Source: Bdellovibrionales bacterium
GTDB taxonomy: Bacteria > Pseudomonadota > Alphaproteobacteria > UBA2400
Direction of reading: 5' to 3'
Assembly: GCA_039808765.1 (NCBI GenBank)
Contig: JBDHTQ010000004.1
Location: forward strand, 74,287 to 138,286
Length of the DNA: 64,000 bases
The position numbers and the translations under genes are program-made. Positions 6,076 to 57,547 of this stretch are shown in pieces. The notes below the pieces were generated by a model that saw only the letters and a program-made list of their open reading frames with translations, searched no databases and was not told the origin of the DNA. Position 1 is the first letter of the stretch, and every line of letters begins with the position of its first letter.

Positions 6076-6106
6076 TGAGGCGTGTTTTCGGACACGAGAT
6101 TAAACT

Positions 6107-34681: not shown

Positions 34682-34735
34682 GTGCAAGTGGTTACCCCTC
34701 TCGACGAAGAGGGAAATATACGGTAAATCTAACTT

Positions 34736-35464
34736 ATGAGTTCAAAAAGCGTGTCACCTCCCGTTAGTTTGGTCAAAAAATCAGACCATTTGGTCCTCCC
34801 TCCGAAAGCGGAAGAGCGCCATTCCACAGTAGATGGACTGGCGCTTGTCATGGCGCGCAATAATTTTTATGTTTTTCACTATCACAAAATTTTGTACATC
34901 GTTTTGGCTCAATTGGCTGGAATTATCATTTTGGTAATGATTTTGTTTCGGTTATTTGAATTTACCGATTCGCGGGATTATTTTTTTCCTGTTCAGCAAG
35001 ACAGCACATTGATCATCGAACGGCCTCTTTATGAGTCCGTTTATAGTGACGACGAAATGCGTCGGTGGGTGGAAGAGGCGACCACCACCACACTCACCTT
35101 TGGTTATTACGATTATCAGATGCGCTGGCAAGATTCGCGCGGTTATTTTACGCCCCAGGGATGGGCCAGCTACAATCGTGCGATGGAAAATGTTTTAAAC
35201 TACATTGGTGTTGGCATAGAAAACTCTGCCAAGAAAGTCATTCTGACCCGTGTTCATCCAGGCAAAGGGGCAGAAATCAAACGGCAGGGAATTTCTAATG
35301 GGGTTTATACGTGGGATTTTACGATCAGTTTGGATGTGACATATTTTGGTACAAGTGAACAAAGTCGGGAGACGTGGAACGTCGACCTTAGAATTGTGCG
35401 CATGCCTTCTAATATCAGTCGCTATGGTCGAGGGATCAAGTGGTTAGTTGCGTTGAAGGAATGA
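34736..35464 (+). CDS. Bitopic VirB8/DotI(IcmL)-like T4SS inner-membrane component, paralogue 1
   Basis: Short cytoplasmic N-terminus, one TM segment (IVLAQLAGIIILVMILF), then a periplasmic domain of about 170 aa. The family-level pattern (FGYYDY...R..FTPQGW...) is shared with the three downstream paralogues. Confidence 0.4.
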   Translation: MSSKSVSPPVSLVKKSDHLVLPPKAEERHSTVDGLALVMARNNFYVFHYHKILYIVLAQLAGIIILVMILFRLFEFTDSRDYFFPVQQDSTLIIERPLYESVYSDDEMRRWVEEATTTTLTFGYYDYQMRWQDSRGYFTPQGWASYNRAMENVLNYIGVGIENSAKKVILTRVHPGKGAEIKRQGISNGVYTWDFTISLDVTYFGTSEQSRETWNVDLRIVRMPSNISRYGRGIKWLVALKE

Positions 35465-35467
35465 TCT

Positions 35468-36205
35468 ATGGCGTTTAAGCTTTTCTCCTCTTCCTCTTCT
35501 TCTGCCGTGCGTAAAGACAGCGAGGTTTTTGCCAAGCCTTCCGATATGCTGATGTCTGTGCAGAGTCAGCAGGATTTTTATTCCATCAGCTATCGTTTTC
35601 TGGTTAAGACCTCACTCTTCTTGGGAACAATCGTTATTGTTTTGATTGTACTCTGTTGTGGAATTGTTATTTTTTCGGCGCCGCATGATCGTTTTTTTAC
35701 CGCATCAGTAGATGGGCGGGTTGAGCGCGTGGTGCCCCTCAATATCGCAACCGCACCGACGGCTGAGATGGCGCAAAAAGTGCGAGATCACATTTCACGT
35801 GCGCTTAATTTTGGTTATCTTGACTATGAGCAACGTCGCGCCGAAAATTTATCGCCCTTTACAGCTTCTGCGTTCGAGAAGCTACAGGATCAGACATTGT
35901 TGCCGTTTGGTTTGCGCGACATGCTCAAAAAGATGCTCGTTTTTAAGACGTCACCGTTAAAATCTCCGGGTGTGTCATTGGTTGCCAATAATGTAGATCA
36001 AAACTTTACCATGCAATGGATTTTCGACGTTCCCGTTAAAATTGAGGTGAGTTCGGATGATCCAAGCGTGAAAGATGCTAATCGACAAGATATCGTCGTG
36101 ATTCGTGTTCTTGTGAAGCGTTCGGCTGATATTGACACGCCTGGCGGGTACATCATCTGGGACATTCAGGGGATAAAAATTATTAATCATGGAGGGGCAT
36201 CATGA
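35468..36205 (+). CDS. VirB8/DotI(IcmL)-like bitopic protein, paralogue 2
   Basis: Same architecture (TM segment LFLGTIVIVLIVLCCGIVIF) and a shared motif (LNFGYLDYEQRRAENLSPFTASAF). Confidence 0.4.
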   Translation: MAFKLFSSSSSSAVRKDSEVFAKPSDMLMSVQSQQDFYSISYRFLVKTSLFLGTIVIVLIVLCCGIVIFSAPHDRFFTASVDGRVERVVPLNIATAPTAEMAQKVRDHISRALNFGYLDYEQRRAENLSPFTASAFEKLQDQTLLPFGLRDMLKKMLVFKTSPLKSPGVSLVANNVDQNFTMQWIFDVPVKIEVSSDDPSVKDANRQDIVVIRVLVKRSADIDTPGGYIIWDIQGIKIINHGGAS

Positions 36206-36978
36206 CTGATTTGAGCTCTTCTGCCAAAAAGCCTGCGGATGTCCAAAAGAAAGCATCAGCAAATGCTACGGTAGCGAAAAAGAATTCGGCCCGTACAGCC
36301 GCCGGCAAAAAAGGGACTCAAAAGCCCGCGTCGAAAAGTGGGCTGAAAAAGTTTGTGTTGCGTTTGAAGGAAGCGCTTTACAGCCAAACACTGCAACCTG
36401 CTGATGTCTCGATGCGGCAGACTTTTTTGGCAACCATCGGGGTTGTGATTTTGATTGCGGGTATTTTTGCTTTTGTTTTTGGCAATAAGCGCGCTGATTT
36501 GCTTTTTGCCAGCCATAGCGGAAAGCTAACGCCCATTCAGTATGTTGACACACCAAGTATTAGTAATGAGGCTGTGATCAACTGGGCCATGGCCGCATTT
36601 ATGGATATCAAAAACTTTAATTTTAACAACATTGATGAACGATTTAATAGCGCATATCGTTATTTTACGCCTGAGGGATGGGACTCTTTCGTGGCCGCAC
36701 TCTACAAGAGTGGTATCATTGACGCCATCAAAACCAATAAACAGTACGTGAGCGCTGTTCCAGGAGGGGCACCAATTATGCAGTCCGAAACAGATGATCC
36801 GGGACATTATTCATGGGTTGTACAAATTCCGTATCAAATGACCACGGTTTGGCGTGATAGTAATGGTACCAATCGGGAAAAAACAGATAGTAAAGTCGCG
36901 ACGATTACGGTGGAGAGTATTCCCACAAACACCTCACTGGCGGGTTACCCCTTCGGGATATCAAGGATAAACGAATAA
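36202..36978 (+). CDS. VirB8/DotI(IcmL)-like bitopic protein, paralogue 3
   Basis: Same architecture (TM segment ATIGVVILIAGIFAFVF) and motif (YRYFTPEGWDSF). It overlaps the upstream gene by 4 nt. Confidence 0.4.
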   Translation: MTDLSSSAKKPADVQKKASANATVAKKNSARTAAGKKGTQKPASKSGLKKFVLRLKEALYSQTLQPADVSMRQTFLATIGVVILIAGIFAFVFGNKRADLLFASHSGKLTPIQYVDTPSISNEAVINWAMAAFMDIKNFNFNNIDERFNSAYRYFTPEGWDSFVAALYKSGIIDAIKTNKQYVSAVPGGAPIMQSETDDPGHYSWVVQIPYQMTTVWRDSNGTNREKTDSKVATITVESIPTNTSLAGYPFGISRINE

Positions 36979-37652
36979 TGACTTTTTCAGGAAAACCCGT
37001 GAGCTTGGTTAAAAAAACCGATATTCAGCGTAATCGGCAATCTTATTTCCGGCTAAACAATAATTTCTTGCGTGATCGTGCGCGTTTTATGGTGGTTCTA
37101 AAGTTTCAGCAATATTTGACTGTGATTCTGCTCTGCATTCTCTTTGGCCTGCTTTTTGGGGTTGTCAGTACCAATTATCGGGTTTTTGCGACAAGTAATA
37201 ATGGAACGCTCGTCCCTAACACGCCGATCGATCAGGAAGTACAGGAAAGCGTGTTGATGACATGGGTTGTAACAACGGTTCTGGAAGCTTCAACGATTGG
37301 ATTTTTCGATTATGAGCTAAGGTTTCAGCAGCTTCGAAGTGCATTTACCGATCAGGGATGGGAATCCTACAACCGCTTTTTACGAACAAGTTTTAATAAA
37401 AAAACCTCTATTCGTGCAGAATTGGAAAATGGCCATATTTTGCTGCAACCCAAAATTTCAACCCCGCCACAAATTTTGCGACGTGGGCTGGTGGGGGGGG
37501 TTATGACGTATCATCTTCAGCTTGAGATTGTTATTCGCGGCGTGTGGAGCGAAGATATGCGAATCCCCAAAATACTGGATTTGATTGTTGAAAGGGTGAC
37601 ACCGGAAATAAATTCAGATGGTTTGGCGATCTCACAGTGGAGAATCTCTTAA
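36978..37652 (+). CDS. VirB8/DotI(IcmL)-like bitopic protein, paralogue 4
   Basis: Same architecture (TM segment LTVILLCILFGLLFGVV) and motif (GFFDYELRFQQLRSAFTDQGWESY). Its start overlaps the upstream stop. Confidence 0.4.
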   Translation: MTFSGKPVSLVKKTDIQRNRQSYFRLNNNFLRDRARFMVVLKFQQYLTVILLCILFGLLFGVVSTNYRVFATSNNGTLVPNTPIDQEVQESVLMTWVVTTVLEASTIGFFDYELRFQQLRSAFTDQGWESYNRFLRTSFNKKTSIRAELENGHILLQPKISTPPQILRRGLVGGVMTYHLQLEIVIRGVWSEDMRIPKILDLIVERVTPEINSDGLAISQWRIS

Positions 37653-37778
37653 TTTCTTTGTAGATTGTTAAGAAGTCCTCGTCACAATCGGTTGGTCGAG
37701 CTTAAAGTGTCGCATAAAAGCAACGGCCTGACACTGAGTTTATCTTGAAGGTTTCCTGAGAAAAGTTTAAACCTTATA

Positions 37779-38786
37779 GTGTGTTGTGGAGTGCTTGAGA
37801 TGTTTCAGAAACGGTTTTTTCTCCTTTTGCTTATGGTTGTTGCGCTAGCGAGCAGCGTGGCTCAGCCTGTTTGGGCGTCTTCGAATATGGGGCGAGGGTC
37901 GTCGAGCCAAGGCGGAGATGTTGGTTTGGAAGGTTTTGTTGAGCCACCACAAATCAGTCAGGAAGAAATTCTTAGAAAAGCCAAACAGATGGCGTTTGAT
38001 AACGCTCTGGATGGAGCAATGCCCCTCTCGCCTGAGCAGATTGCGGCTATTATTCAAAAAATGTCAATCGTGCAGGAAGCTGCTGCGCCAGCCATAGCAA
38101 ATCCCGTGCGCCCTAAGCCAGTCCTAAAGGTTGAAACAATTTCGCTTGACCCTGGTACTCAGCCCCCTGTCATCAAGGTGGCTGCGGGCTATGTGACGTC
38201 GGTTATGATTCTTGATGCCACCGGGGCGCCGTGGGAGATTAAAGATATTGCGTATGTTGGCAAATTTAACGCGGCCATTCCCAACAGTGCGCCGCATACG
38301 TTTCGAATTTTGCCCCTTAATCGCTTTTATGAGGGCAACTTGACGCTGCAGTTGGTGGGGCTTGCAACACCTGTTACCTTCCGTCTTGAGGCCGGTGAAG
38401 ATGAGGTTTATTACCGTTATGATGTGCGGTTACCTGTTATTGGTCCCAACGCTAAGGCCCCGCAATTTAAGTCTGCAAACAGCATGGTGGCCGGCGATTC
38501 TGTTATGATGGCGGTTTTGAGCGGTTATCCTCCCGCTTCGTCAAAGCGGTTGCAGGTCTCTGGGCTTGATGATCGTTCGGCGGCTTGGGAGATTAATGGT
38601 CAAATTTTCTTGCGCACACCCCACACCTTGCTTTCGCCTGCGTGGTCTGGCAGCACGACATCGGGGGATGGTACCACAGTTTATGCAATTCCCGATACGC
38701 CTGTGCTGCTTCTGTCAGATCAGGGGGTTATGGTTCGTGCACGCTTAAGTCGCCCTAAAGGTATTGTTGAGGGAGAAGCTCAATGA
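37779..38786 (+). CDS. Secreted VirB9/DotH(IcmK)/TraN-like T4SS outer-membrane-complex protein
   Basis: Sec signal (LLLLMVVALASSVAQPVWA) followed by a beta-rich sequence (VIKVAAGYVTSVMILD..., LTLQLVGLATPVTFRLEAG). Its position between the VirB8-like and VirB10-like genes matches the conserved B8-B9-B10 / dotI-dotH-dotG order. Confidence 0.4.
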   Translation: MCCGVLEMFQKRFFLLLLMVVALASSVAQPVWASSNMGRGSSSQGGDVGLEGFVEPPQISQEEILRKAKQMAFDNALDGAMPLSPEQIAAIIQKMSIVQEAAAPAIANPVRPKPVLKVETISLDPGTQPPVIKVAAGYVTSVMILDATGAPWEIKDIAYVGKFNAAIPNSAPHTFRILPLNRFYEGNLTLQLVGLATPVTFRLEAGEDEVYYRYDVRLPVIGPNAKAPQFKSANSMVAGDSVMMAVLSGYPPASSKRLQVSGLDDRSAAWEINGQIFLRTPHTLLSPAWSGSTTSGDGTTVYAIPDTPVLLLSDQGVMVRARLSRPKGIVEGEAQ

Positions 38787-40120
38787 GTAATACATCCGAT
38801 TTTAATGAAACACCCGGTAATTCTCGTTACCGTCGCCCGAACAAGGCGAGCAGTCTTTCTCAGATGTGGCAAAATCCAATCGTCAAGCTTGTTATCGTTT
38901 TGATGGTTTTGGGTGGGGCTGCTCTGGCTGGAATGAAGTTCCTATCGGGGGGGCGTGATGAACAGGAAACAGTTTTGGCAACGCCTGGTTCTGGCGGTGG
39001 TGCTGCAAAAGTAGGTAACCAAATAACACCCGAGTATCAGTTGGCTGTTCAGCAAAGTGATATTCGTAACGCTGCAGAAGCGCGTGCAACGGGTGATACT
39101 GCTGTGCCAACACCTTTGCAGACTGCTGTATCATCACCAGAAGTTGACACTGACATGAATGCCGCTCAAGGGGAGGATCCCATTCGTCAGTTTGAAGCCA
39201 TTTTGCAGAAGGATGGACAGGGAAAGAAGAGTAATTTGCCTCCTCCACAAACAACGCAGCCGGCTGTTCAGGTTCCGCCTGAAGTTTTAAAGCAGCTTAC
39301 GGAAGCGATGGCTAATCAGATTGGTGCGATGATGAAGACGTGGACACCTCCCACAATGTCTCAGGTTACATCGAACATCAAGGAAGAGGACATTTTGATG
39401 CGCAATACGCCGAAGGAAATTTCGGTCGACAGTTTGAAGCCTCTGACCGAGTCTAAACCGGTTGTGACTGCGGGTAGTGTTTATTATGGGCAGATGATTA
39501 TTGAAGCCAATTCTGACATTCCGGGCCCGATTATGGCGCAAATTCTCACTGGACCTTTGGCCGGAGGGCGTGCAATCGGTCAGTTTCAAACGTTTCGCAA
39601 CCATCTTTTGATTCGCTTTGATACGGTTTCACTTGGCACAAATCAGATGAGCGTGGATATTATCGCCCTTGATCCCAATACTACTCTTGGTGGGATTGCG
39701 AGCGAGGTTGACCCGCGTTACTTCCAACGTGTTTTGCTGCCTGCTGCTGCTGCGTTTATTTCTGAATATGGTCAAGCGCTTTCAGAGCCGACCAGCACGG
39801 TAAGTGTTTCAGGGACGGATGGTACCAACATCTCTACTTCGACCAATGAGCGCGATGCAAAAGATGCGATGTATGCTGGTATTGGTGCTGCATCAGAGAA
39901 GATCGAGCAATTCGTGACAGAAGAAGCATCGTCAATTAAGCGCCTTGTTCGCGTTGGCGTGGGCACGCCAATCGGCATGTTTTTTGTGAAGCCTGTTTGC
40001 GGCTTTAGCGGGCAGTGTAATGCGGGGTCAGCGGTAACGCCTGCTTCTTCGCCTTCCCCTTCCCCCGTATCTGTGAGTGGTGTTGTTTCTCCGACATCGA
40101 CATCTTATATTCAACGTTGA
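38783..40120 (+). CDS. VirB10/TrbI/DotG-family T4SS protein
   Basis: N-terminal TM segment (IVKLVIVLMVLGGAALAGM), then a Pro/Gln-rich linker. The C-terminal domain aligns block-by-block to VirB10/TrbI: AGSVYYGQMIIEANSDIPGPIMAQI, GGRAIGQF, LIRFDTVSLGTNQMSVDIIALDPNTTLGGIASEVDPRYFQRVLLPAAAAFIS. Confidence 0.65.
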   Translation: MSNTSDFNETPGNSRYRRPNKASSLSQMWQNPIVKLVIVLMVLGGAALAGMKFLSGGRDEQETVLATPGSGGGAAKVGNQITPEYQLAVQQSDIRNAAEARATGDTAVPTPLQTAVSSPEVDTDMNAAQGEDPIRQFEAILQKDGQGKKSNLPPPQTTQPAVQVPPEVLKQLTEAMANQIGAMMKTWTPPTMSQVTSNIKEEDILMRNTPKEISVDSLKPLTESKPVVTAGSVYYGQMIIEANSDIPGPIMAQILTGPLAGGRAIGQFQTFRNHLLIRFDTVSLGTNQMSVDIIALDPNTTLGGIASEVDPRYFQRVLLPAAAAFISEYGQALSEPTSTVSVSGTDGTNISTSTNERDAKDAMYAGIGAASEKIEQFVTEEASSIKRLVRVGVGTPIGMFFVKPVCGFSGQCNAGSAVTPASSPSPSPVSVSGVVSPTSTSYIQR

Positions 40121-47812: not shown

Positions 47813-47913
47813 CGTGTATTCTCCCCGGGATCAAGGTAGCAGGTTGTAAAAAAGAGGCAAGTACAGCTTGACAGATGCGGCCCAAATCGGCCAATCTCCG
47901 CACTGCAAACAGT

Positions 47914-47989
47914 GGGGCAATAGCTCAGTTGGTAGAGCGCTACATTCGCATTGTAGAGGTCGGGAGTTCGACTCTCCTTTGCTCCACCA
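47914..47989 (+). tRNA. tRNA-Ala (anticodon CGC)
   Basis: Cloverleaf folded by hand. The acceptor stem GGGGCAA/TTGCTCC carries the Ala identity pair G3:U70. D-arm GCTC-AGTTGGTA-GAGC; anticodon arm CTACA-TTCGCAT-TGTAG (anticodon CGC); T-arm GGGAG-TTCGACT-CTCCT; discriminator A; encoded CCA. Confidence 0.8.
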
Positions 47990-48145
47990 TTCCGTCTGGC
48001 CGGTCAGGCCTTTTTGCATATATCCCCTGCTTTTGTCCCGATTGAGGGGGTATTTCGCCACCACCGGGTCGGGGAGAGCGGACTTTCGGTCCTTAATCGG
48101 CCTCTTCGGGCTAGAATTCTCCGTTTCAGATTGTGTCCGACCCGC
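47958..48145 (+). repeat. Direct repeat copy 1 (attL-like). It covers the 3' 32 nt of tRNA-Ala plus about 155 nt downstream.
   Basis: About 190 bp that recurs with roughly 93% identity at 54279-54470. The two copies bracket a 6.3-kb insert. Confidence 0.6.
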
Positions 48146-48292
48146 GAGCGTATATGTGGCAGAATTATTCAAAATCACTTTGCGAAATGTGATCGACGCT
48201 CGCCGCGCGCGATTTATTTTAATACCGCCAATCACATCGCCTTACGCCCGGACATCTTCATATTCCTAGAGGCAAGTTTCACTACCTAATTT

Positions 48293-49300
48293 TTAAAGTT
48301 CTGGGAACATCACATCTGCCATATATGCTGCCACATTACGGGGTCGGCCGATGGCGGGCATGTGGTGCATGGCGAGACCGGGGTTGGCATTAATCTCGAT
48401 GATCGCATGGGTAACCGTAGTCTGATCGACGGTAATGTCCGGAGTAAGAAAATCGATCCCTACACAGGGAAGACCATCGAATGTCTGCAGTGCTCTTTTT
48501 GCAATGCTCAACACCGAGGAATGAATCACATCTGTCATGTCCGTTGATACGCCGCCTTGAGCTAGATTAGAAATGAGTCGCAGATAGATTTTTTCACCTT
48601 TATTCGGGACGTGATCAAAGTTCAGGCCCTTCTGCTGCAGGTAATTCAGCACGATATCGTCGAGGGCTATGGGGCAGAGGGCACTACCCTCTTTCTTTTT
48701 GACAGACTCCCGCCGGAGACTTTCCTGCTCAGCTAGAGCTCGGATATTGTTTTTGCCGTCACCTATTACATGCGCGGGATCGCGAAGTAGAACTGCGTAG
48801 TCTCCCTTGGTGGTGATGAAGATGCGGTACTCGTTGCCGTGAATATGCCGTTCGACGATAAAGAAAGATTGCTCTCCTGCCTGATGGAGAAGGGCGTAAA
48901 TTGCATCCTGCAGCTGTTCTCTGTTTTCGAGGCCGGAGCGAACTAACTCGCCATGCGAGCCGGTATTCGGTTTGACCACAAGCGGGAAGCCGATTTCGTC
49001 GCCATAATTCAGCGCTGCCTCGATATCGCCGCCCGTGAAGATTCGTCCCTCGGGCACATACAGCCCACTCTCTTCCAGAAGTAATTTAGCCGTGTGTTTG
49101 TCCGCCGCTAACGAGGACGGCAGATAAGGCACGATTTTGCTAGCCCGGTCGAGCAGATACTCAGTCGTTCCTTTATAAGACACCCGCATAAGCTCGAGAT
49201 TGTAGTCGAGCGAAGTGACATTCGCCCCGCGGCGCACGAGTTCTTCAACCAGGAGACGCTGATTGGTATGAAGACAGCTGAGATCAAGTGTACTCGTCAC
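48293..49300 (-). CDS. ATP-grasp ligase (RimK / LysX / graspetide-ligase-like)
   Basis: 335 aa with a GTG start. ATP-grasp blocks present: FPLVVKPNTGSHGELV, HIHGNEYRIF, IIEINANPG. Confidence 0.65.
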   Translation of the reverse strand: MTSTLDLSCLHTNQRLLVEELVRRGANVTSLDYNLELMRVSYKGTTEYLLDRASKIVPYLPSSLAADKHTAKLLLEESGLYVPEGRIFTGGDIEAALNYGDEIGFPLVVKPNTGSHGELVRSGLENREQLQDAIYALLHQAGEQSFFIVERHIHGNEYRIFITTKGDYAVLLRDPAHVIGDGKNNIRALAEQESLRRESVKKKEGSALCPIALDDIVLNYLQQKGLNFDHVPNKGEKIYLRLISNLAQGGVSTDMTDVIHSSVLSIAKRALQTFDGLPCVGIDFLTPDITVDQTTVTHAIIEINANPGLAMHHMPAIGRPRNVAAYMADVMFPEL

Positions 49301-49417
49301 TTACTGCGGACGAGGCCGACCAGTGACGGGACGCGGATCAACGTCAAGTTTGCGCGGCGAACGGCCACGGGCAGGTCGGCTGCGATAATTTTCAGTCGGA
49401 TTATTATCTTCAGACAT
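49301..49417 (-). CDS. Candidate 38-aa Pro/Arg-rich peptide gene (possible RiPP precursor/substrate), below the 60-aa ORF-track cutoff
   Basis: Translated by hand: MSEDNNPTENYRSRPARGRSPRKLDVDPRPVTGRPRPQ*. An SD-like GAGGTG lies 5 nt upstream of the ATG. The TAA stop abuts the GTG start of the ATP-grasp gene, and the ORF fills the gap between the methyltransferase and ATP-grasp genes. Confidence 0.4.
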   Translation of the reverse strand: MSEDNNPTENYRSRPARGRSPRKLDVDPRPVTGRPRPQ

Positions 49418-49476: not shown

Positions 49477-50154
49477 TTATCCTTCAAAAATAAGCACGTT
49501 ATGACCGATTTCAGCAGTGTTAACTTTTTGGCCGACCGCTTCGCCCCATATACCGCCGATGATGTGGCGAGCATGGGTAATATCCCTGAACTGAAAGCTC
49601 GTTGCCAGCCGGGCGGTGATCCGAAAGCCGGCTACGTCCTGAAGCCAGGCGTTATAAGCGATTGAAACGGGGATTTTTTCTCTTATCTCTTCAAACATGC
49701 CGCTGGCATCGTTCTCAACCAGAAAAATTCTACCGCCGGGATGTAAAGAGGCGCGGACGCAGTTCAGAATATCTAGTCGCTTCGGCTCACTGCTAATGGT
49801 ACCAAGCATCCAGCAGGCGAGCGCGATATCGTATTTTCCGAGGTTGGGATTTTCAGCAGCATCGGCGTGAATGAATGAGATGTTTCTAAAGTTTCGGGTC
49901 TGCGCCCGCGCTATCGTCAGCTGCGCCTCAGCAGCGTCTAGCCCACAGATATGCTGCGCATGGGGAGCAAAAAGTCTTAGATATTTTCCGGTGCCGCAGC
50001 CGAGATCAAGCATGGTCTTGTTTTCGATGTGGGGTAATAGCCAATTAAAGACCTGGCCTCGGGCATCTTCAGCTGCGCAAAACTCTTCATAAAGATTGGC
50101 CTTCTGGTAATAGACTTCTGATTTTTCTTGAAGGTTGTTCTTGGAATAGCTCAT
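49477..50154 (-). CDS. Class I SAM-dependent methyltransferase (start trimmed to MSYSKNN, an ATGA overlap with the upstream stop)
   Basis: SAM-binding motif I LDLGCGTGKYL plus a motif II/III acidic loop. Length about 225 aa. Confidence 0.65.
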   Translation of the reverse strand: MSYSKNNLQEKSEVYYQKANLYEEFCAAEDARGQVFNWLLPHIENKTMLDLGCGTGKYLRLFAPHAQHICGLDAAEAQLTIARAQTRNFRNISFIHADAAENPNLGKYDIALACWMLGTISSEPKRLDILNCVRASLHPGGRIFLVENDASGMFEEIREKIPVSIAYNAWLQDVAGFRITARLATSFQFRDITHARHIIGGIWGEAVGQKVNTAEIGHNVLIFEG

Positions 50155-52565
50155 GCTTTCTTTTCCCATAGCAGAATGATGTCTTTGTTGTTGTCTTCCC
50201 ACGCGCTTTGAATCTCGATTTCCGTGTAAACGCCGTCGGCGTAATGACCGAAAGCTTTATGGCGAGCTTCCGAGTCGTTGATCCGGCTGCGCACGTTTGA
50301 TCCATTCATGTTGTAGGCGTCAAAGACGTAGCCGAGAATCATCTGACCGCCGGGCCGAAGGCGTTTAGCCATTGGCGTAACGATCTTCGACCGGAACTCT
50401 TCAAGATAATCACTGTCATACATGTGGTGCGCGTAATCGCTGAGGTTGGAGAGGAGGATGGTGTCGTAGCTGTCTTCCGTCTGTGCCATCTCTTCAGCTG
50501 TAAGGGTATTCCATTTCACCTCTAGCTTATGGCAAGCCGTCTGTGCTTTTGCATAGGCATCTATATTGGCGAGATAGGGATTGTTGAGAGCAATCCGCTC
50601 GCCTGACTGCTGTTTGCGGAACAAAGCCGAATGGCGCATAGCTGAGCCATCCATGTTGAAGAATTTGTAGGCGCTATCAAAGAAGTATCTGGCAGAAAGA
50701 CTTAATCCATCCCTGCAGATTTGATATCTATCGTGCTCCATAAGCAAGAGGAAATTCTGGAACTCTGAAATTCCGAAAGTATGGAGAGCTGCCAGCTTGA
50801 GTTCAGCCATATATTTTGCAAGCAGGTTGACGTCAAAATTTACAACGCTCTTCGCCCCAGCCATACAGACGTTGATCAATTGATCGCCCGATGCACCGAC
50901 GGTCAGGACGTCCTTGCCAGAAAAGTCGAGAAAGTTAAGATACCCGCCGATATTCTCTGTTGCGAAGGCATAGACAGGGCTCGCCTTTGAATAGCGCCCT
51001 CCGCGCTGAAGATTGGCGATCAGATCGCCTTCGAACAAGGAAGCGATGAATTCGGCCTCGGCAAATTGGGGAACGATTTGCATCGGGCAGCGATCAAGTC
51101 CTGATCGGGTAAGGCCAGTCACTAAATGCCGGAATGAAGTGTTCTCACGGTCCTCAAGAATTTCCCGTAGGGTGTGATCATGTAGCGTCTTTTCTGCGAT
51201 ATAAGTCGGGCGGCGCTCCGCCACCCACGTGCAGGGTGAAATACGCCCTTTATGGTCGATAAAGAGGAACCGCTCTCCACCAGGGCAGGCGCCGCAGCCC
51301 TCCTTCACCGTTTCGGCGAAGTTGCCGTTGACTTTGATGCGGCCCGAGAATTCCGCGCGAAGCGCCTCGATCTCAGCCTTCATTTCGCTGATGGGACGGT
51401 CACACAACATGGCTGGACGGTTGCGCATGCGTCCGACCGGTTCCATCAGGGAATAAATCACCTCATTGCAACCAAGCTCAAAACAGAATTCGGTGATTGC
51501 CCGCATTTCGTTCTGATTGTTCCGGTAAAGAACGCAACCAATACGCACATAAATTCCGTTGTCTACAAGATGTTTTAAGCCATTAATCGTCGGTGTATAA
51601 GTTCGCTTTCCACGTATTGCTTCCTGCAGCTCTTGCGTATGCCCGTCGAGGCTGACATGAACCATATCAAGCTTCAGAGAAGCTAGTTCCTGCACCACCT
51701 CTGCCGTGATGAAGGCGGCGTTTGTCGAGAGGTCCGTTCGGAAGTTCTGCTGGCGAGCATACTTCAGAATATCCATAAGATCGGGTCGCGTAAACGGCTC
51801 GCCCCCCGTGATCTTGAGATGCGTGAACCCGCATTCCTTCAGACCATCGATTGTCTCGTAAATTTTGGCCGTGGAAAGTTCATCGGCCTGCGGGCGCGAG
51901 GTCGAGCTGAAAATGCAGTAACGGCAGCCGTAGTTGCAGGTATTAGTTATTTCCCAGATGACTCGGCCGCCATGGCGGGGAATGCGGAAGAGGCAGAACG
52001 ACGTTGCAGGATCGTAATCATCGGCGCAGAGTTCATAGGCTTTCTCTATATTATCGTCGATCAACCCAGCGGTTGTATCCACAAGTTGATATGGTTTGCC
52101 ATATTGTTCAAGAAGAGTGATTATCTCTGACGTTGGCATTTGCCTCTTTAAGCGCGCATCAATCTGCGCGTTCGAAAGATCTCCGCCTTGGAGGCGCGCC
52201 ATGCGCTCAATATCATTGCAATGCACGACGATGACACCGTCGACCATATCGAGATATCCATCCTCGATAAGTCGCGCCCATTCTAGGACGACAAGACCTT
52301 CCGCAGCCTGGACTTGCCGTTGCGCCTCGGTGCGCGTAGACTCGCTTACTTTCTCCCACAAAGCCTCAAAATGATCGGGGTCGGAGCCACCGATAGTGCG
52401 GCGTATCGTGTCGATGGAAACAAGAGTGGCTCCCACTTTTTTGACCAGACGATCCGCCAGCGTCGTTTTTCCCGCTCCCATGCCGCCCGTAATGCCGATG
52501 ACGCGTGAGGCCATTCTAATATTCCCAGCCAAGGCCATAGCGCAGCGGGCAGAGCGACACGACAT
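50151..52565 (-). CDS. Three-part fusion protein: a P-loop kinase-like N-terminus (dephospho-CoA-kinase-like), a radical SAM core with a SPASM/twitch-like Cys-rich extension, and a C-terminal domain of unknown function
   Basis: The N-terminal VIGITGGMGAGKTTLADRL is a CoaE/AAA-kinase P-loop. The radical-SAM cluster motif is TNTCNYGCRYCIF (CxxxCxxC). An auxiliary Cys region follows (CGACPGG...ISPCTW). A further roughly 280-aa domain brings the total to 804 aa. Confidence 0.55.
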   Translation of the reverse strand: MSCRSARCAMALAGNIRMASRVIGITGGMGAGKTTLADRLVKKVGATLVSIDTIRRTIGGSDPDHFEALWEKVSESTRTEAQRQVQAAEGLVVLEWARLIEDGYLDMVDGVIVVHCNDIERMARLQGGDLSNAQIDARLKRQMPTSEIITLLEQYGKPYQLVDTTAGLIDDNIEKAYELCADDYDPATSFCLFRIPRHGGRVIWEITNTCNYGCRYCIFSSTSRPQADELSTAKIYETIDGLKECGFTHLKITGGEPFTRPDLMDILKYARQQNFRTDLSTNAAFITAEVVQELASLKLDMVHVSLDGHTQELQEAIRGKRTYTPTINGLKHLVDNGIYVRIGCVLYRNNQNEMRAITEFCFELGCNEVIYSLMEPVGRMRNRPAMLCDRPISEMKAEIEALRAEFSGRIKVNGNFAETVKEGCGACPGGERFLFIDHKGRISPCTWVAERRPTYIAEKTLHDHTLREILEDRENTSFRHLVTGLTRSGLDRCPMQIVPQFAEAEFIASLFEGDLIANLQRGGRYSKASPVYAFATENIGGYLNFLDFSGKDVLTVGASGDQLINVCMAGAKSVVNFDVNLLAKYMAELKLAALHTFGISEFQNFLLLMEHDRYQICRDGLSLSARYFFDSAYKFFNMDGSAMRHSALFRKQQSGERIALNNPYLANIDAYAKAQTACHKLEVKWNTLTAEEMAQTEDSYDTILLSNLSDYAHHMYDSDYLEEFRSKIVTPMAKRLRPGGQMILGYVFDAYNMNGSNVRSRINDSEARHKAFGHYADGVYTEIEIQSAWEDNNKDIILLWEKKA

Positions 52566-53910
52566 TCATATTTGGTGTGCGGTACCGAAGTGCCTCCACG
52601 TTCATAAATTCATCCGGGTGGCGGACCACAGCATAGCCACCCCCGCTCAGTTCTGCTGCGATGCCCTCGACGGCTTCGCGCACCCGCTCGGAGCTTACCT
52701 TGGCTAGGTTCTGGTTCTGCATGCCCTGATGAATGTATTGCGTCGAAGGAATGTCGGAATAATCCTCATAAATTCTGCTACCCATGCGGATGGCCAGATG
52801 GTGCAGCCGCACTTCTTCAGTGCGAAGTTCCAGAATGAGATCGGCCGTGCGTTGGAGTTCATCCTCAGTTGATCCGGGCAGATCCATGATCCAGCTTGTC
52901 CGCACGCGGAAACCCATCTCTCGTGTGCGATTCACGATGCGGCGCACATCGTCCGCATTGACCTTCTTGTGGATAGAGTTTAGAAGCCGATCATCGCCGG
53001 ATTCGACGCCATAGTGGATCCAGCGGAATCCCGCCTCATGCATGGTTTCCATCATCTCTTCTTCGAACAGGTTGAGCGAGCCGAGGCACCCCATTGCGAC
53101 TTTTATCTTGCGCGCGATAAGTTCTTCGCAGATATCCTTCATACGTTTGCGTCCGACGGTTGCGTTATCGTCGAGGAACAAAATTTTCTTCGCGCCGCAT
53201 TCATTGACGAGATACTCAATCTCATTTGCGATGGCTCCAGCACTGCGTCCGCGCCAGTTGCCCCAGAATCCGGGGACATGGCAGAAATCGCATTTCATGT
53301 GGCATCCACGGCTGGAAAGGATGGTACGTACATCGATATAGGCATCAAGGTCAACGAGGCTGCGTTTAGCGATGGGAAGCGTGTCGAGATCGAACGGCTG
53401 GCTTGGGCGATCCGTGACGTGAATGTCTAGACTTCCGTCCAGATAGCAAATCCCCGGTATTTGCTTGAGCGAATTCTGAGACCATGTTGGTACCGCAAGT
53501 AGCGCGCTCAGAGCCAGCTCCATCTCATGCCGTATCAGAACATCTACAGGCGTCCCGCTGAAAAGAAGCTGCTCAGGCTTATAGGTCGCCGTTTTCCCAC
53601 CAACGATGACCTTTGCCCCCCGCGCCCTAGCCTGATCAGCGATGTTCCGAACAGCCTCAAGCGTCCCATCGCAATGAAGAGGGATGTGATAATCATAGAT
53701 GATAATGGCGATATCATATGCAAAATCGGTCATATGATTTTTGAAATCTTCCGGTCGGATCTGGCGGACATCCATATCCAACAGTCGCACTTCATGGCCG
53801 AGCACCGCGACAAAGGATGCCGTAACCAAAACATCGATTGGCTCGATCAGGATACCCTTGGAACTGAACGGCACATTTGGCGGATTGATGATCAATGCCT
53901 TCATTTCCAA
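52516..53910 (-). CDS. B12-binding-domain radical SAM protein (class B rSAM)
   Basis: An N-terminal Rossmann-like B12-binding region (MKALIINPP...) is followed by SSRGCHMKCDFCHV (CxxxCxxC) and a TIM-barrel radical-SAM core. Length 464 aa. Confidence 0.7.
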   Translation of the reverse strand: MEMKALIINPPNVPFSSKGILIEPIDVLVTASFVAVLGHEVRLLDMDVRQIRPEDFKNHMTDFAYDIAIIIYDYHIPLHCDGTLEAVRNIADQARARGAKVIVGGKTATYKPEQLLFSGTPVDVLIRHEMELALSALLAVPTWSQNSLKQIPGICYLDGSLDIHVTDRPSQPFDLDTLPIAKRSLVDLDAYIDVRTILSSRGCHMKCDFCHVPGFWGNWRGRSAGAIANEIEYLVNECGAKKILFLDDNATVGRKRMKDICEELIARKIKVAMGCLGSLNLFEEEMMETMHEAGFRWIHYGVESGDDRLLNSIHKKVNADDVRRIVNRTREMGFRVRTSWIMDLPGSTEDELQRTADLILELRTEEVRLHHLAIRMGSRIYEDYSDIPSTQYIHQGMQNQNLAKVSSERVREAVEGIAAELSGGGYAVVRHPDEFMNVEALRYRTPNMNVVSLCPLRYGLGWEY

Positions 53911-54278
53911 ATGTTTACCTCAATTCTTAAAAGATGGGGCAGACTAACATATCTCTCTTCGAGAAATCCACTTTAATATATTGAACTCAAGCCTTGTTTT
54001 CTGGCCTCGCGTCCGAACCTACGGACCTCCAAAATAGCCATCATTTACCCCGGTTAAGGTATAGCACCGAGTGCTATTAACATCAAGGTAGTATACCTGT
54101 GTGTTTGGGTCATTCTGAGATCAGGTTTCTCACCTGAATCTCTCCCTTGCAGAGGAGAGTCCTGCAATCGGTATCCTGCATCGTTGCAGAGCAACATTTC
54201 TGTTATGAAATGACATAATATCAGCTGGTTAGGCCATATCATGACAGGAATTAGCCATGGTTGGGCATATAGTTGCTG

Positions 54279-54470
54279 GTCGGACCGGGAGTTCGACTCT
54301 CCTTTGCTCCACCATTCCGTCAGGGCGGTCAGGCCATTTTGCATATATCCCCTGCTTTTTCCCCGATTGAGGGGGTATTTCGCCACCACCGGGTCGGGGA
54401 GAGCGAACTTCCCGCCCTTAATCGGCCTCTTCGGGCTAGAATTCTCCGTTTCAGATTGTGTCCGACCCGA
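54279..54470 (+). repeat. Direct repeat copy 2 (attR-like). It consists of the tRNA-Ala 3' fragment plus the downstream segment.
   Basis: It matches 47958-48145, including GGGAGTTCGACTCTCCTTTGCTCCACCA. Only the 3' end of the tRNA is duplicated, as expected for a tRNA-targeted insertion. Confidence 0.6.
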
Positions 54471-54735
54471 TAGACCGTTATTGGGCTGCATCAAAGCTAA
54501 GCGTATGGCGCTGTTCCTGCCACATGAGAGAAAGGGGTTTGCTGACCAGCTTTTCTTTGCTCAGGCCGTCCGGCTGCTTGCCAGCGAGGATATCCTTGTT
54601 GTTAATAATGATCCCATCATCTGCTGAAACTACAGCTGAAACTACAGATGCTGACAGCCAAACGAGCAGCGTTTTTAGCTTGGTAGTTTCTGTCGGGGTA
54701 TGCAAGAATGACGAGATAAAAATAGGTAGGTTATC

Positions 54736-55479
54736 TTGGAAAGAATTGCCTGCGATAGAGAAATGATTACCCTGCCTCCAGCGCATGAGTTTGCGAAGTT
54801 GGAGACGAAGGTGTTTCGCACACTTAAAGATGCACACTTGGCAATGCGTGATATTGAGGAGCTGCCATTTTTTAAAATGTCCGATGAAAAGTTGCGGCCT
54901 GATATTAGAAAGGTAGTAAAAGTAATTCTAGATTTGACGCCCGAGCTAGTTAAGTTTGTCCAAGCGCAGTTTGACAGCAAAATTCTACATTTGTCGCTTG
55001 GCGGGTCGGCTGTTTTTAGGAGCAACCCAGCTGACTTGGATTTTAATTTAATCGTTAGTGGGTCTCATTTTTCATATCGGGAATATGCTTTTAGTCAAAT
55101 TGGGATACGAGGCGCGCCGCAAGATATCCTTGATCAATTTTCTTTTATTGCGTTTGGCGCAGATAATCTCGCTGGCACTGCTGCATGTGAGGATAGTATT
55201 TTAAACAAAGGATATTTGCACCAAGACATCATAAGCAGAGAGTTGATAATTTATGATATGCGGAATTTGCTTCTCTACGGACATCCAGTCACGGTTTCTC
55301 CAGGAGTAGACTTGATACTGAAGCGTGTGATGACTGGTATTGGCTTTGCTCGCCGGGGGCTTACAGGAGAGGTCGTGCGCTACACGACTCCAGAGAGAAA
55401 AATAAGAAAAGCTGTTTCAAGAATTGAAGAGGCGGAAGCTATCATCAAGGAGCTTATTCGCCGTGGTGCATCAGGCTAA
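54736..55479 (+). CDS. Nucleotidyltransferase-fold (Pol-beta superfamily) protein of unknown function
   Basis: hG[GS]x9-13Dh[DE]h signature present: HLSLGGSAVFRSNPADLDFNLIV. Length 247 aa (the start may be at MITLPPAH). Confidence 0.35.
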   Translation: MERIACDREMITLPPAHEFAKLETKVFRTLKDAHLAMRDIEELPFFKMSDEKLRPDIRKVVKVILDLTPELVKFVQAQFDSKILHLSLGGSAVFRSNPADLDFNLIVSGSHFSYREYAFSQIGIRGAPQDILDQFSFIAFGADNLAGTAACEDSILNKGYLHQDIISRELIIYDMRNLLLYGHPVTVSPGVDLILKRVMTGIGFARRGLTGEVVRYTTPERKIRKAVSRIEEAEAIIKELIRRGASG

Positions 55480-56543
55480 CAGGCCGGCCCCTTGCTTTTA
55501 ATACTGGCTATTGATTGTTCGATTACAACTGACATATCGCTGGAATTAATAGCTGATAACCTGTTGTAGAGAGTTGCCAAGACTGATTGATCTTTCTGAA
55601 AGCGCAAACCCATCCTTCTGGAATAGGTCAGTAGTTCTTTTTGTCTTGAAGAGTAGCTCCAGTTTTTGCCATCAAGACTAAGTAGCGAAAGCAAGCGAAG
55701 AATTTCTGGCTCACTGACTATGCTTCGGATAGCAGGATCTGCGAGCACCTCATTTGCAGGCATCTTTGACAGCCCAATATAGCCGAGTGGTGGTAAGCTT
55801 AGATTCCGGAATCCAAAATTGAATGGTGCGACCTTATTAAGAGTGCCAAGTCCAACAAACGCCCACGCGCGATCATGAGACAGCTTCTCAGCTAGGTATA
55901 TGGGAAATAGGGCATTGCTCACTCTAGGGTCAAGTTTAAGGTCATTTAAGCCAATTGAATTGAGTGGAACTCCGGTCTTTCTCTTTTTGCTAATGAGAGC
56001 TTGCTGCGGCATAGAGGCAAGCTGACCTGACCAGTTAGATGGTTTGTTGATAATAGGCAGATATAGTGATAATTCATTTGCATGATGGGCGAGCGGCATA
56101 CTTAAAATATTGCGCGTTTGATGAGCGGGGGTGATTGGTTTTCCGCAGTTCGCGCAATCAACGGGTGCAGGCGCTGTAGCAAAGGCCTGAGGGCCGTCAC
56201 AGCTGCTACAAACTAGAATTTTTTGCTGGCTGAGGGTGATCGTACCACTCTCAATCGCGCGCATGAGTTGAACTCCCACCCAACTATGAAAAGCTGGATC
56301 GTTATCAAAGTAATGAGGCTTGTCTTTGCTGTACATGCTATAAGCACGCAGTGTGTCTTCATAGCGCTTAAAGGGATCATCAATTCCGGTTTTAAGTCCG
56401 GTATTCCACAGAGCGTGGCCAGTTAGTCCCGGGATATGTAATTCGTTAAAAATATCAGTTAGTACAACAGGGAGCAGTCTCCCTGGAGCAGAGATGGATA
56501 AGTTAGCCATTCCCACTGGCGAGGTTGTTATTATGGTTTTCAT
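55476..56543 (-). CDS. Hypothetical protein with a C-x2-C...C-x2-C zinc-ribbon-like segment
   Basis: 355 aa. The segment LVCSSCDGPQAFATAPAPVDCANCGKP suggests a Zn ribbon. There are weak class-I-synthetase-like hints (HIPG...GH, LSKM) but no confident family. The gene is AT-rich. Confidence 0.3.
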   Translation of the reverse strand: MKTIITTSPVGMANLSISAPGRLLPVVLTDIFNELHIPGLTGHALWNTGLKTGIDDPFKRYEDTLRAYSMYSKDKPHYFDNDPAFHSWVGVQLMRAIESGTITLSQQKILVCSSCDGPQAFATAPAPVDCANCGKPITPAHQTRNILSMPLAHHANELSLYLPIINKPSNWSGQLASMPQQALISKKRKTGVPLNSIGLNDLKLDPRVSNALFPIYLAEKLSHDRAWAFVGLGTLNKVAPFNFGFRNLSLPPLGYIGLSKMPANEVLADPAIRSIVSEPEILRLLSLLSLDGKNWSYSSRQKELLTYSRRMGLRFQKDQSVLATLYNRLSAINSSDMSVVIEQSIASIKSKGPAC

Positions 56544-56623: not shown

Positions 56624-57547
56624 TCATAACTTAATAAATCTGGAGATTTCTAATTTAAGTAATTTGTCCTGTAGTGGGCTGCCATGTCCATAATCGGGCA
56701 CGATGAACAGTTTTGAGTTATTCATCGCTTTATGAAGAGCCCACGCCTGCTCAGGCGGGCAGACAAAATCGAGGCGATTATGAACAATGAGAGTGTGTTT
56801 ATCTTTGATGATGTCGATGTTATCCAGAATTTGGTTGTCACAGAGGAAGAAATTTTCTTTTTCATAATGCATACGAATCCTGAAATTATCTAGATGTGCG
56901 CCACTGGGTTCGTTCTGGCTAATTTCTGGCGATAGGCTGCCAAGTTCATGCTCATAGCTGCCGTATTTGTTCAGTGCTGAGATGCATTGTTGTTTGTCAC
57001 CTGATAATGCTAGAGCGGCGTAATATTGCTGTGCGTTCGTATTTTTCGGCAGATTAGATGTAACGTTCTCCATAAGGTCAGGATAGAAGCGACCAGAATC
57101 GTGTGCGATCCAATCAATGTCCACGCGACGGGCAAGAAAAGCTTGGGTGATAATGATCTTATTGACCAGCGCTGGGTAAGTTTCTGCAAAGACTAAAGCG
57201 AGCGTTGCGCCCCACGAACAGCCGTAAATTACTGCGTGATCAATGTTGAGCTTATCAAGAAGCCTTTTTGCATCGTGAACGGTATGTTGTGTTGTGTTTT
57301 CCTCTAATTTGCCGGTTGGTAGCGATTTTCCGCGACCACGTTGATCGAACATTATGATACGACAGACATTCAAATTAAAAGCATTTGCATGTTTTGGTTT
57401 GCTAAAAGAGCCAGGGCCACCATGAAAGGAGAGAATTGGCAGTCCATTTGGATTCCCAAACTCATGAAAGTAGACCAAATGTCCATCCTCTTCGGGAAGA
57501 TAGCCTGTATTGAACGGTTTGTGTTCTCTGCTTATAAAGGTAAACAT
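56624..57547 (-). CDS. Alpha/beta hydrolase, proline-iminopeptidase-like
   Basis: HGGPGS oxyanion motif and the nucleophile elbow GCSWG. The N-terminus (YLPEEDGHLVYFHEFGNPNGLPILSFHGGPG) matches the prolyl aminopeptidase family. Confidence 0.6.
   Translation of the reverse strand: MFTFISREHKPFNTGYLPEEDGHLVYFHEFGNPNGLPILSFHGGPGSFSKPKHANAFNLNVCRIIMFDQRGRGKSLPTGKLEENTTQHTVHDAKRLLDKLNIDHAVIYGCSWGATLALVFAETYPALVNKIIITQAFLARRVDIDWIAHDSGRFYPDLMENVTSNLPKNTNAQQYYAALALSGDKQQCISALNKYGSYEHELGSLSPEISQNEPSGAHLDNFRIRMHYEKENFFLCDNQILDNIDIIKDKHTLIVHNRLDFVCPPEQAWALHKAMNNSKLFIVPDYGHGSPLQDKLLKLEISRFIKL

Follow-up and report, generated by a model that had tools for sequence, protein, structure and literature searches.

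Radical S-adenosylmethionine (SAM) enzymes can act on glutamate or glutamine in gene-encoded substrates: PqqE cross-links a glutamate of the small ribosomal peptide PqqA, and QCMT, the B12-dependent radical SAM glutamine C-methyltransferase of methyl-coenzyme M reductase, modifies a residue of this kind inside a protein. In His-Xaa-Ser (Hxs) systems, a small protein with many copies of a 3- to 4-residue motif is encoded beside radical SAM maturases, and viperin illustrates the pairing of a radical SAM enzyme with a partner kinase. CoaE, the dephospho-coenzyme A (CoA) kinase, phosphorylates the 3'-OH of an adenosine moiety, and BtaA and BtaB make the homoserine-betaine lipid head group. Here we describe a protein in which a CoaE-like kinase, a radical SAM enzyme and a BtaA-like transferase are joined in one chain, together with the gene cassette to which it belongs. 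It is encoded in a 64,000-nucleotide (nt) stretch of contig JBDHTQ010000004.1 from a Bdellovibrionales bacterium, hereafter the window. We propose that the cassette probably forms a protein-modification pathway that resembles those of ribosomally synthesized and posttranslationally modified peptides (RiPPs) and targets the glutamates of a small repeat protein encoded within it. The cassette, the repeat protein and the fusion are undescribed in the papers that we searched, which did not cover one older comparative survey of ATP-grasp enzymes.

The fusion protein is genuine

The minus strand of the window carries an open reading frame (ORF) of 804 codons at 50151..52565, in which Pfam detects CoaE, Radical_SAM and DUF3419 domains, all above cutoff; the three-domain ORF reported in an earlier note on this DNA is thus present. 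The true coding sequence is probably 50151..52514 (787 amino acids, aa), starting at the ATG at 52514. This start is favored because residues 1-19 of the ORF are disordered in the AlphaFold2 model, the database copy of the protein (P0001) begins at M18 and is 787 aa long, and the ATG at 52514 is placed 1 nt past the upstream stop. Residue numbers of the fusion given below follow the 804-residue count.

Searching with the fusion protein returned 92 relatives in four architectures: kinase, radical SAM and DUF3419 domains together (~770-810 aa); radical SAM plus DUF3419 (~610-650 aa); kinase plus radical SAM (~484 aa); and a form that additionally includes a methyltransferase (849-999 aa). Proteins of the three-domain architecture (P0002-P0009, P0016, P0022, P0028-31, P0040, P0044) come from ENA, Logan and JGI assemblies that are independent of the window, so that the fusion is present in no fewer than four further assemblies. 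Identity ranges over 38-64%, and the interdomain linkers align well among the homologues. An exhaustive HMMER search of 1.84 billion 50%-identity cluster representatives yielded 139 matches at E <= 1e-30, five of which are three-domain proteins. In the AlphaFold2 model of the entire chain, the fusion forms one compact body (mean predicted local distance difference test score [pLDDT], 88.4; predicted template modeling score [pTM], 0.76). Structure prediction and a search for the same fusion elsewhere, two of the checks that the earlier note had proposed, both speak for the protein. An artificial fusion created by a frameshift or assembly error might be suspected, as the three parts are separate genes in most relatives, but we reject it, barring evidence from reads of an error in this particular assembly, in view of the identical architecture across independent and divergent assemblies, the five three-domain cluster representatives, the aligned linkers and the compact model.

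All genes are separate in the commonest state of the cassette (e.g., L023 of Clostridia and L030 of Nanoarchaeota). The kinase and radical SAM genes are fused in Bacilli, and the radical SAM and DUF3419 genes are fused in Alphaproteobacteria and in bacteria of the Candidate Phyla Radiation (CPR). All three are fused in the window, L001, L002, L090 and L091, and in L007/L014 the methyltransferase is fused to the DUF3419 domain as well. The window protein thus represents a genuine fusion, specific to its lineage, of three genes that follow one another in a conserved operon, and the fusion of three neighboring genes is strong evidence that their activities serve one pathway.

Three catalytic domains

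The N-terminal domain matches Pfam CoaE (and also AAA_18) over residues 22-131, scoring 46.3 bits against a CoaE cutoff of 27, and contains the P-loop GITGGMGAGKTT. When a profile built from 19 kinase domains was compared with the Protein Data Bank (PDB), the first 15 structures were all dephospho-CoA kinases (best E value, 1.8e-23), which bears out the assignment of the N terminus as a P-loop kinase. Residues G10, G15, K16, D35, R107, D112 and R121 are invariant in the kinase alignment (A2) and cover the Gly and Lys of the P-loop, a catalytic-type Asp after strand 2 (VDxxRR) and the Arg and Asp of the lid. By these motifs, the domain belongs to the CoaE family. Its score against the NCBIfam CoaE equivalog TIGR00152 (45.2 bits; relatives, 36.7-70.7) is under the cutoff of 65.55, and ~40 aa of the helical insert that binds the CoA substrate in CoaE have been lost in the window clade.

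The central domain contains a radical SAM core (Pfam PF04055, residues 205-360; 97.1 bits versus a cutoff of 29.5), and 22 homologues share its cluster motif, CNYGCRYC (C210/C214/C217), without variation, as expected of the radical SAM superfamily. Four further cysteines are invariant, namely, C191, C427, C445 and C493, with C427 and C445 arranged as C427-x12-G-x4-C445. As these supply four ligands, they indicate one auxiliary cluster and hence the twitch subtype, i.e., half of a SPASM domain. The earlier description of the enzyme as SPASM-like therefore holds only in part: the CX3CX2C core is there, but the match to SPASM (PF13186, residues 427-479) is sub-threshold at 18.2 bits versus 21.5, and the seven-cysteine SPASM motif that binds two clusters (CX9-15GX4C ... 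CX2CX5CX3C ... C) is absent.

By both sequence and fold, the nearest solved relatives of this domain are PqqE, SkfB and SuiB, followed by BlsE, anSME, viperin and MoaA; PqqE matches at 1.4e-14 by sequence and is also the top Foldseek match. The NCBIfam equivalog cutoffs were missed by wide margins for PqqE (101.7 versus 381), MftC (105.3 versus 265) and AhbD (112.4 versus 500). The prokaryotic viperin (pVip) models of PADLOC gave 81.6 bits, aligning at positions 6-156 of 262 only, and the NCBIfam prokaryotic viperin model gave 65.9 bits versus a cutoff of 180, so that the full-length match, including the C-terminal nucleoside triphosphate-binding half, that defines a pVip was not obtained. The earlier note, which knew of no described radical SAM family with an N-terminal module of this kinase-like kind, went too far, since PADLOC holds a model named 'viperin-kinase fusion' (PDLC02905); our fusion protein is not a member of that family.

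The large, separate C-terminal domain noted earlier was also recovered. It comprises ~300 aa, folds confidently when modeled alone (pLDDT, 96.5) and is a DUF3419/BtaA-like domain: Pfam PF11899, the BtaA family, matches residues 531-646 with 35.8 bits in the full protein and 40.1 bits for the domain alone (cutoff, 28.2), as it does in all 25 relatives tested. Only positions 11-132 of the 385 in the profile, its first third, align. The domain exhibits the N-terminal acidic motif and the SAM-binding glycine-rich loop of the family, with Y..F.TEN, the loop GSGD, the acidic D578 and LSNxxDY all invariant. No solved relative of the C-terminal domain was detected by sequence.

A small protein with glutamate-centered repeats

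In most loci, the gene directly preceding that for the ATP-grasp ligase encodes a small, mostly disordered protein that is rich in Ser, Glu and Arg and carries 2-19 copies of the motif [G/S]-E-[S/D/N]-x (e.g., GESR, SENL, GEDL). Among the 71 loci with a located ATP-grasp gene, 35 have an ORF that begins MS[ED] and ends no more than a few nucleotides from the ATP-grasp start. Shuffles that preserved composition gave an expectation of 68 occurrences for the motif [GST]E[SDN], whereas 298 were observed. Per 100 aa, the motif occurs 3.45 times in the small proteins and 0.20 times in 923 other ORFs from these loci, and 91% of the small proteins exceed the 99th percentile of background motif density. 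Even where the gene has been relocated (L019, L017), a repeat-bearing ORF is still found inside the locus.

The motif variants follow the enzyme clades. SEDN, GEDL and GEDY (i.e., ED[NLY]) occur in the window clade and SENL/GENL in Alphaproteobacteria; elsewhere, GESR/SESR is found in Firmicutes, DPANN archaea, Methanosarcinales and some CPR bacteria, and GESP/GESY in L018 and L008. In the window, the repeat protein is encoded by a 38-codon ORF that begins MSEDNNPTENY, with GAGG 6 nt ahead of its ATG. Homologous peptides in the same place are MSEDNNHRYGGGEDYRS..GEDL..GEDL in L090, MSEDNNHGYGGGEDH..GEDL..GEDL in L091 and MEDNNHNNGSFGEDNN in L002; those of L090 and L091 follow the pattern MSEDNNH..GEDY..GEDL and that of L002 MEDNNH..GEDN.

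The sequence ...GESR or ...GESRW closes many of the repeat proteins. Those of archaea and Mollicutes are longer, with the repeats at the C-terminal end, after a folded or helical N-terminal part. Among the repeat-protein genes of L029, L038, L026, L046, L083 and L017, those of archaeal cassettes encode a conserved N-terminal domain of ~100 aa before the GESR repeats, with the pattern ..KELKGTYGSNDI..LV.F...AP..L.....Y.FEK.G... and no match in Pfam or NCBIfam, and the proteins of Bacilli and Mollicutes have in common the helix motif (Y/F)N(S/N)(L/V/I)(E/D)D(I/V)DxLIExxE. This domain and helix motif may be the part that the enzymes recognize. HxsA weakly matches one repeat protein. Visual inspection of the repeat proteins for a fixed E-x3-Y spacing, as in PqqA, showed it in some of them but not as a general feature.

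Operon and island in the window

The fusion gene is the second of a translationally coupled operon in the order B12-type radical SAM enzyme, fusion, class I methyltransferase, 38-aa peptide and ATP-grasp ligase (Table 1). A single nucleotide separates the stop codon of the B12-dependent enzyme from the start codon of the fusion, the fusion stop overlaps the methyltransferase start as ATGA, and the small ORF ends immediately before the GTG of the ligase. The best PDB match of the B12-dependent enzyme is 9ccb (1.5e-16), which is QCMT (review, PMC12931638). All of its NCBIfam matches, i.e., BchE, HpnJ and the glutamine C-methyltransferase of methyl-coenzyme M reductase (TIGR04014, 114.6 bits versus 360), are under cutoff, and since BchE and HpnJ score about the same as the QCMT family, the match does not define the type of reaction. 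For the ligase, the NCBIfam cyanophycin synthetase model gave 225.8 bits, far under its cutoff of 877, and PDB 7lgm, a cyanophycin synthetase G-domain, matched at 7.6e-45. Its proximity to the G-domain of cyanophycin synthetase, GshAB and RimK types indicates an amino-acid ligase rather than a graspetide cyclase.

The four enzyme genes and the peptide gene fill a 6.3-kb island between two 184-nt direct repeats, the left of which begins within the T-arm of tRNA-Ala(CGC). These repeats at the tRNA gene look like the footprint of an integrative element; Pfam and NCBIfam found no integrase domain within the island or in either of the two ORFs past its end.

Table 1. Features of the cassette island in the window, listed by position
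Feature	Position	Strand	Remarks
tRNA-Ala(CGC)	47914..47989	+	ARAGORN; 3' end is the probable island insertion site
Left 184-nt direct repeat	47961..48144	.	Last 29 nt of the tRNA plus 155 nt beyond; repeat search, pairwise alignment
ATP-grasp amino-acid ligase (relative of cyanophycin synthetase G-domain, GshAB, RimK)	48293..49300	-	Last operon gene; start codon GTG
38-aa peptide gene, MSEDNNPTENYRSRPARGRSPRKLDVDPRPVTGRPRPQ	49301..49417	-	Probable substrate; two [G/S/T]-E-[S/D/N] motifs
Class I SAM-dependent methyltransferase	49477..50154	-	Pfam Methyltransf_25/11/12/23; likely ATG 50154 from homologues, ORF open to 50202
Fusion: DUF3419/BtaA-like SAM-dependent transferase domain	50151..51065	-	Residues 501-804; class I Rossmann fold with helical insert
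Fusion: radical SAM core (CX3CX2C) and twitch domain, one auxiliary [4Fe-4S] site	51066..52010	-	Residues 186-500; Pfam, invariant Cys
Fusion: CoaE-family P-loop kinase domain	52011..52514	-	Residues 18-185; profile versus PDB, invariant motifs
B12-binding-domain radical SAM enzyme (class B)	52516..53910	-	First operon gene; Pfam B12-binding and Radical_SAM
Right 184-nt direct repeat	54286..54469	.	95% identical; far island end

Four ORFs called across the repeats (47831-48235, 47868-48269, 54054-54494 and 54241-54627) are apparently not genes but read-through of tRNA and repeat DNA. Past the right repeat, two ORFs at 54736-56543 (247 aa on the plus strand and 355 aa on the minus strand) have no match in Pfam, NCBIfam or PADLOC and are followed by genes for a proline-iminopeptidase-like hydrolase (56624-57547) and a sulfotransferase (57609-58433). 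The GC content drops to 0.39-0.43 from 58 kb on, that of the host being ~47%, and this region may be a second accessory island. Elsewhere in the window (33905-40120), there are Dot/Icm type IVB secretion genes, i.e., two DotI/IcmL-like genes, DotH/IcmK (5.9e-66) and a TrbI/DotG-like gene, as well as a prepilin peptidase gene. The secretion genes indicate that the host lives inside cells, as a bacterium of the Legionellales type.

Distribution of the cassette

In the fetched contigs, the conserved order is B12-dependent radical SAM enzyme, CoaE-like kinase, radical SAM enzyme, DUF3419 protein, methyltransferase, small ORF and ATP-grasp ligase, and gene order is identical in L001-L009. A scan of species-representative genomes revealed ~70 further loci carrying all parts, in Proteobacteria, CPR bacteria, DPANN archaea, Methanosarcinales and gut Firmicutes; the ATP-grasp gene is likewise present in ~70 related cassettes. 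The cassette is rare yet horizontally spread across bacteria and archaea. It also travels on mobile, accessory DNA: a Mob_Pre relaxase gene lies 76-85 nt upstream of the gene for the B12-dependent enzyme in L023, L039, L041, L045 and L060 (metagenome-assembled genomes of gut Clostridia and Bacilli), and Abi_2/AbiD and Abi_alpha genes neighbor the cassette in L004 and L091. An origin from phages was rejected, as a scan of IMG/VR found no copy of the cassette and only distant radical SAM genes. PADLOC returned no matching system, with generic matches to the radical SAM core only, for the window proteins and one Firmicute cassette. Besides generic domains, no Pfam or NCBIfam family was above cutoff for cassette or repeat proteins.

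NUDIX genes directly adjoin the cassette in five Firmicute loci (L033, 12320-14024; L082, 8747-9307; L024, 5626-6171; L047/L049, ~5660-6210) and lie within 5 kb of it in ~13. MazG-like pyrophosphohydrolase genes are found beside or near other cassettes (coordinates listed alongside: L004, 11513-11827). These neighbors hint at a nucleoside-diphosphate-type compound.

The closest relatives of the window cassette, L090 (430-4600) and L091 (422-4598), have four extra co-oriented genes upstream, which encode a PhyH-type dioxygenase, an unknown protein of 378 aa, an AAA_33-type P-loop protein and a glycosyltransferase and are absent from the window island. A reduced version, consisting of the B12-dependent radical SAM enzyme, the second radical SAM enzyme and the methyltransferase, is present in a complete Woesearchaeota chromosome (L055, 5975-9709). 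Searches of that locus found no DUF3419, ATP-grasp or repeat ORF, and it may represent a related but different system.

A proposed pathway acting on repeat glutamates

The complete cassette comprises six enzyme activities (B12-dependent radical SAM, kinase, twitch radical SAM, DUF3419 transferase, methyltransferase and ATP-grasp) and the repeat protein, and catalytic motifs are intact across the cassette enzymes that we examined. We consider it likely, with a probability of roughly 0.6, that the cassette is a RiPP-like pathway that modifies the glutamates of the repeat protein, which would be its substrate or scaffold. As in RiPP clusters, a candidate precursor gene with conserved putative modification sites stands beside tailoring enzymes. 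The repeat-bearing small protein is the probable substrate, in keeping with the analogy to peptide modification that the earlier note had drawn. Three of the enzymes point to a Glx or carboxylate target, because PqqE acts on a glutamate of PqqA, QCMT methylates a protein glutamine and enzymes of the ligase family activate carboxylates.

In the pathway that we envisage, the invariant Glu of each repeat would be the site acted on. The ATP-grasp ligase could activate the Glu side chain, or a C-terminal carboxylate, as an acyl phosphate and join an amine to it. Both radical SAM enzymes would abstract hydrogen from the Glu side chain or backbone, the B12-dependent one perhaps methylating the residue, as QCMT does on glutamine, and the twitch enzyme forming or breaking a C-C bond, as PqqE does on Glu. 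The DUF3419 domain is expected to transfer an alkyl group from SAM, with 3-amino-3-carboxypropyl, as in BtaA, being somewhat likelier than methyl, and the separate methyltransferase might then methylate the product, as BtaB does after BtaA. The CoaE-like domain would phosphorylate an intermediate at a hydroxyl group, which may be a ribose 3'-OH should the intermediate carry an adenosine-type group, as kinship with CoaE and the NUDIX/MazG neighbors suggest it could. Of all the proposed steps, the one least certain is the acceptor of the kinase. The three-domain fusion would hand one tethered substrate between active sites, and the final product could be either kept on the protein or excised as a small molecule.

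A more specific version of this pathway is conceivable, albeit improbable in our estimation. One of the radical SAM enzymes would put an adenosyl group, from SAM or adenosylcobalamin, on each repeat Glu, so that nucleoside-amino-acid units are built on a ribosomal template. Next, the CoaE-like domain would add a phosphate at the 3'-OH of the ribose, in the manner of CoaE acting on dephospho-CoA; the BtaA-like domain, methyltransferase and ligase would complete a SAM- or CoA-like moiety, and NUDIX and MazG neighbors might trim or detoxify the product. If true, the outcome would be a protein with many nucleotide-like side chains or a released antimetabolite. A recent preprint on sinefungin synthesis (10.64898/2026.05.21.726688) offers a precedent for the order of events: adenosylation of arginine by a B12-dependent radical SAM enzyme precedes phosphorylation of the ribose by a kinase.

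Several observations weigh against a glutamate-modifying pathway in general. The substrate role was assigned from gene neighborhood and motif conservation, which amount to association. With 38 aa and two motifs, the window peptide is short, and it has no helical tail like that seen in most homologues; moreover, no clear repeat ORF was found in several CPR loci (L013, L015, L016, L020-22). Unlike most RiPP clusters, the cassette includes no PqqD or RiPP recognition element (RRE), protease or exporter among its proteins as searched with Pfam and NCBIfam, and ABC/FtsX genes occur near only ~11-14 loci. Furthermore, the kinase is near genuine CoaE, with two relatives exceeding the NCBIfam equivalog cutoff; together with the NUDIX/MazG genes near some related cassettes, this closeness leans slightly to a nucleoside-type acceptor over an ordinary hydroxyl of the peptide.

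Alternative pathways

The last point leads to the best surviving alternative, a small-molecule nucleotide pathway, which we regard as unlikely. Here, the product would be a nucleoside natural product or, on the principle of viperin plus kinase, an antiviral or toxic nucleotide analogue. The kinase and radical SAM enzyme would work on a free nucleotide that the transferase, methyltransferase and ligase decorate, with the repeat protein acting in regulation or immunity, or as no more than the final acceptor. The CoaE family of the kinase, the pVip match of the radical SAM core, the presence of viperin, MoaA and BlsE among the structural matches, and the NUDIX and MazG-like genes described above are all in line with such a pathway, as are the Abi neighbors in L004 and L091 and the mobile context (Mob_Pre next to five loci and the tRNA island in the window). 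However, the viperin matches are partial or far below cutoff, and the best matches in both sequence and structure are peptide maturases. To our knowledge, viperins have no counterpart of the invariant four-cysteine auxiliary-cluster site. No PADLOC system matches, IMG/VR holds no copy, and a repeat protein with a clade-specific Glu motif across bacteria and archaea is left unexplained.

A betaine-lipid-type pathway, in which the DUF3419 protein and methyltransferase act as BtaA and BtaB to make a homoserine-betaine lipid head group and the other enzymes are accessory, is very doubtful. The window domain does score above the gathering cutoff of the BtaA family, and the methyltransferase is always adjacent and sometimes fused to the DUF3419 domain, which recalls BTA1-type fusions. 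Against this, the alignment covers just positions 11-132 of the profile, head-group synthesis by BtaA and BtaB proceeds without radical SAM enzymes, a kinase, an ATP-grasp ligase or a repeat protein, and no membrane-protein family was matched among the cassette proteins in Pfam or NCBIfam. CPR and DPANN lineages, which host the cassette, carry out little lipid synthesis. This pathway thus accounts for a minority of the components.

Equally hard to sustain is a tRNA or rRNA modification pathway on wybutosine logic, which combines radical SAM chemistry with aminocarboxypropyl transfer and methylation. The cassette enzymes are of types loosely comparable to TYW1, TYW2 and TYW3/4, and the kinase is weakly similar to seryl-tRNA(Sec) kinase in the P-loop region only, but Pfam finds no RNA-binding domain, the patchy distribution on mobile islands is unlike that of housekeeping RNA modification, and the repeat protein and ATP-grasp ligase are unexplained. 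Like the lipid pathway, it accounts for a minority of the components.

Implications

We know of no earlier work, in the literature searched or otherwise, that ties a CoaE-type kinase or a BtaA-type SAM transferase to peptide or protein modification. The general logic of the cassette as we read it, a small gene-encoded substrate plus tailoring enzymes, is that of RiPP and protein maturation, and the enzyme set is unprecedented. The obligatory pairing of these two activities with an amino-acid ligase and both radical SAM enzymes leads us to predict glutamate chemistry of a new kind, and the short Glu-centered motif supplies a concrete candidate substrate that makes this chemistry directly testable. 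Many of the hosts are host-dependent or have small genomes, as exemplified by the Dot/Icm-bearing bacterium studied here, CPR bacteria, DPANN archaea, Mollicutes and Micavibrio. Such a host range suggests a role in conflict or association between organisms.

Comparison with known systems

Sinefungin synthesis by SinC/SinF (10.64898/2026.05.21.726688) likewise pairs a B12-dependent radical SAM enzyme with a kinase and has a RiPP-like peptide gene in its cluster, a likeness drawn from the description and not from sequence comparison. Unlike the proposed pathway, it acts on free arginine, and its peptide gene (sinA) is dispensable; the window cassette, for its part, has no cobalamin adenosyltransferase.

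The BtaA/BtaB pair and the fused BTA1 share with the cassette a DUF3419 domain that has a class I methyltransferase either after it or fused to it, and the SAM-binding motifs are kept. They differ in the extent of the aligned profile, in domain size (~300 aa against a 385-position profile) and in context, the cassette being a peptide cassette with no lipid genes. CoaE and the window kinase have the same fold, P-loop, catalytic Asp and lid motifs, and CoaE structures fill the top 15 matches; the window kinase differs by its score under the equivalog cutoff and its reduced helical insert, and in that the kinase domain of this family is always embedded in the cassette. Viperin with its partner kinase (CMPK2; 'viperin-kinase fusion' in PADLOC) provides the likeness of a P-loop kinase placed N-terminal to, or beside, a radical SAM enzyme. 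In this case, only the generic radical SAM core aligns, the window protein has an auxiliary cluster, and the kinase is of another family.

QCMT is the best solved relative of the first enzyme of the operon, and its action within a protein parallels our proposal, although the cassette is found in organisms without methyl-coenzyme M reductase. PqqE, SkfB, SuiB and MftC resemble the central domain in joining a radical SAM core to an auxiliary-cluster domain and include its best matches in sequence and structure; the parallel with PqqE extends, in the proposal, to work on the Glu of a small ribosomal peptide. The fusion nevertheless scores far under the PqqE and MftC family cutoffs, the cassette has no PqqD/RRE partner, the radical SAM enzyme of the window is fused to a kinase and a SAM-dependent transferase, and the presumed substrate has many short repeats rather than one core. 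In this last respect, the cassette resembles the Hxs systems and multi-core RiPP precursors, where a small protein with many copies of a short motif also stands beside radical SAM maturases. What sets the cassette apart from Hxs is a motif centered on Glu and a different set of enzymes.

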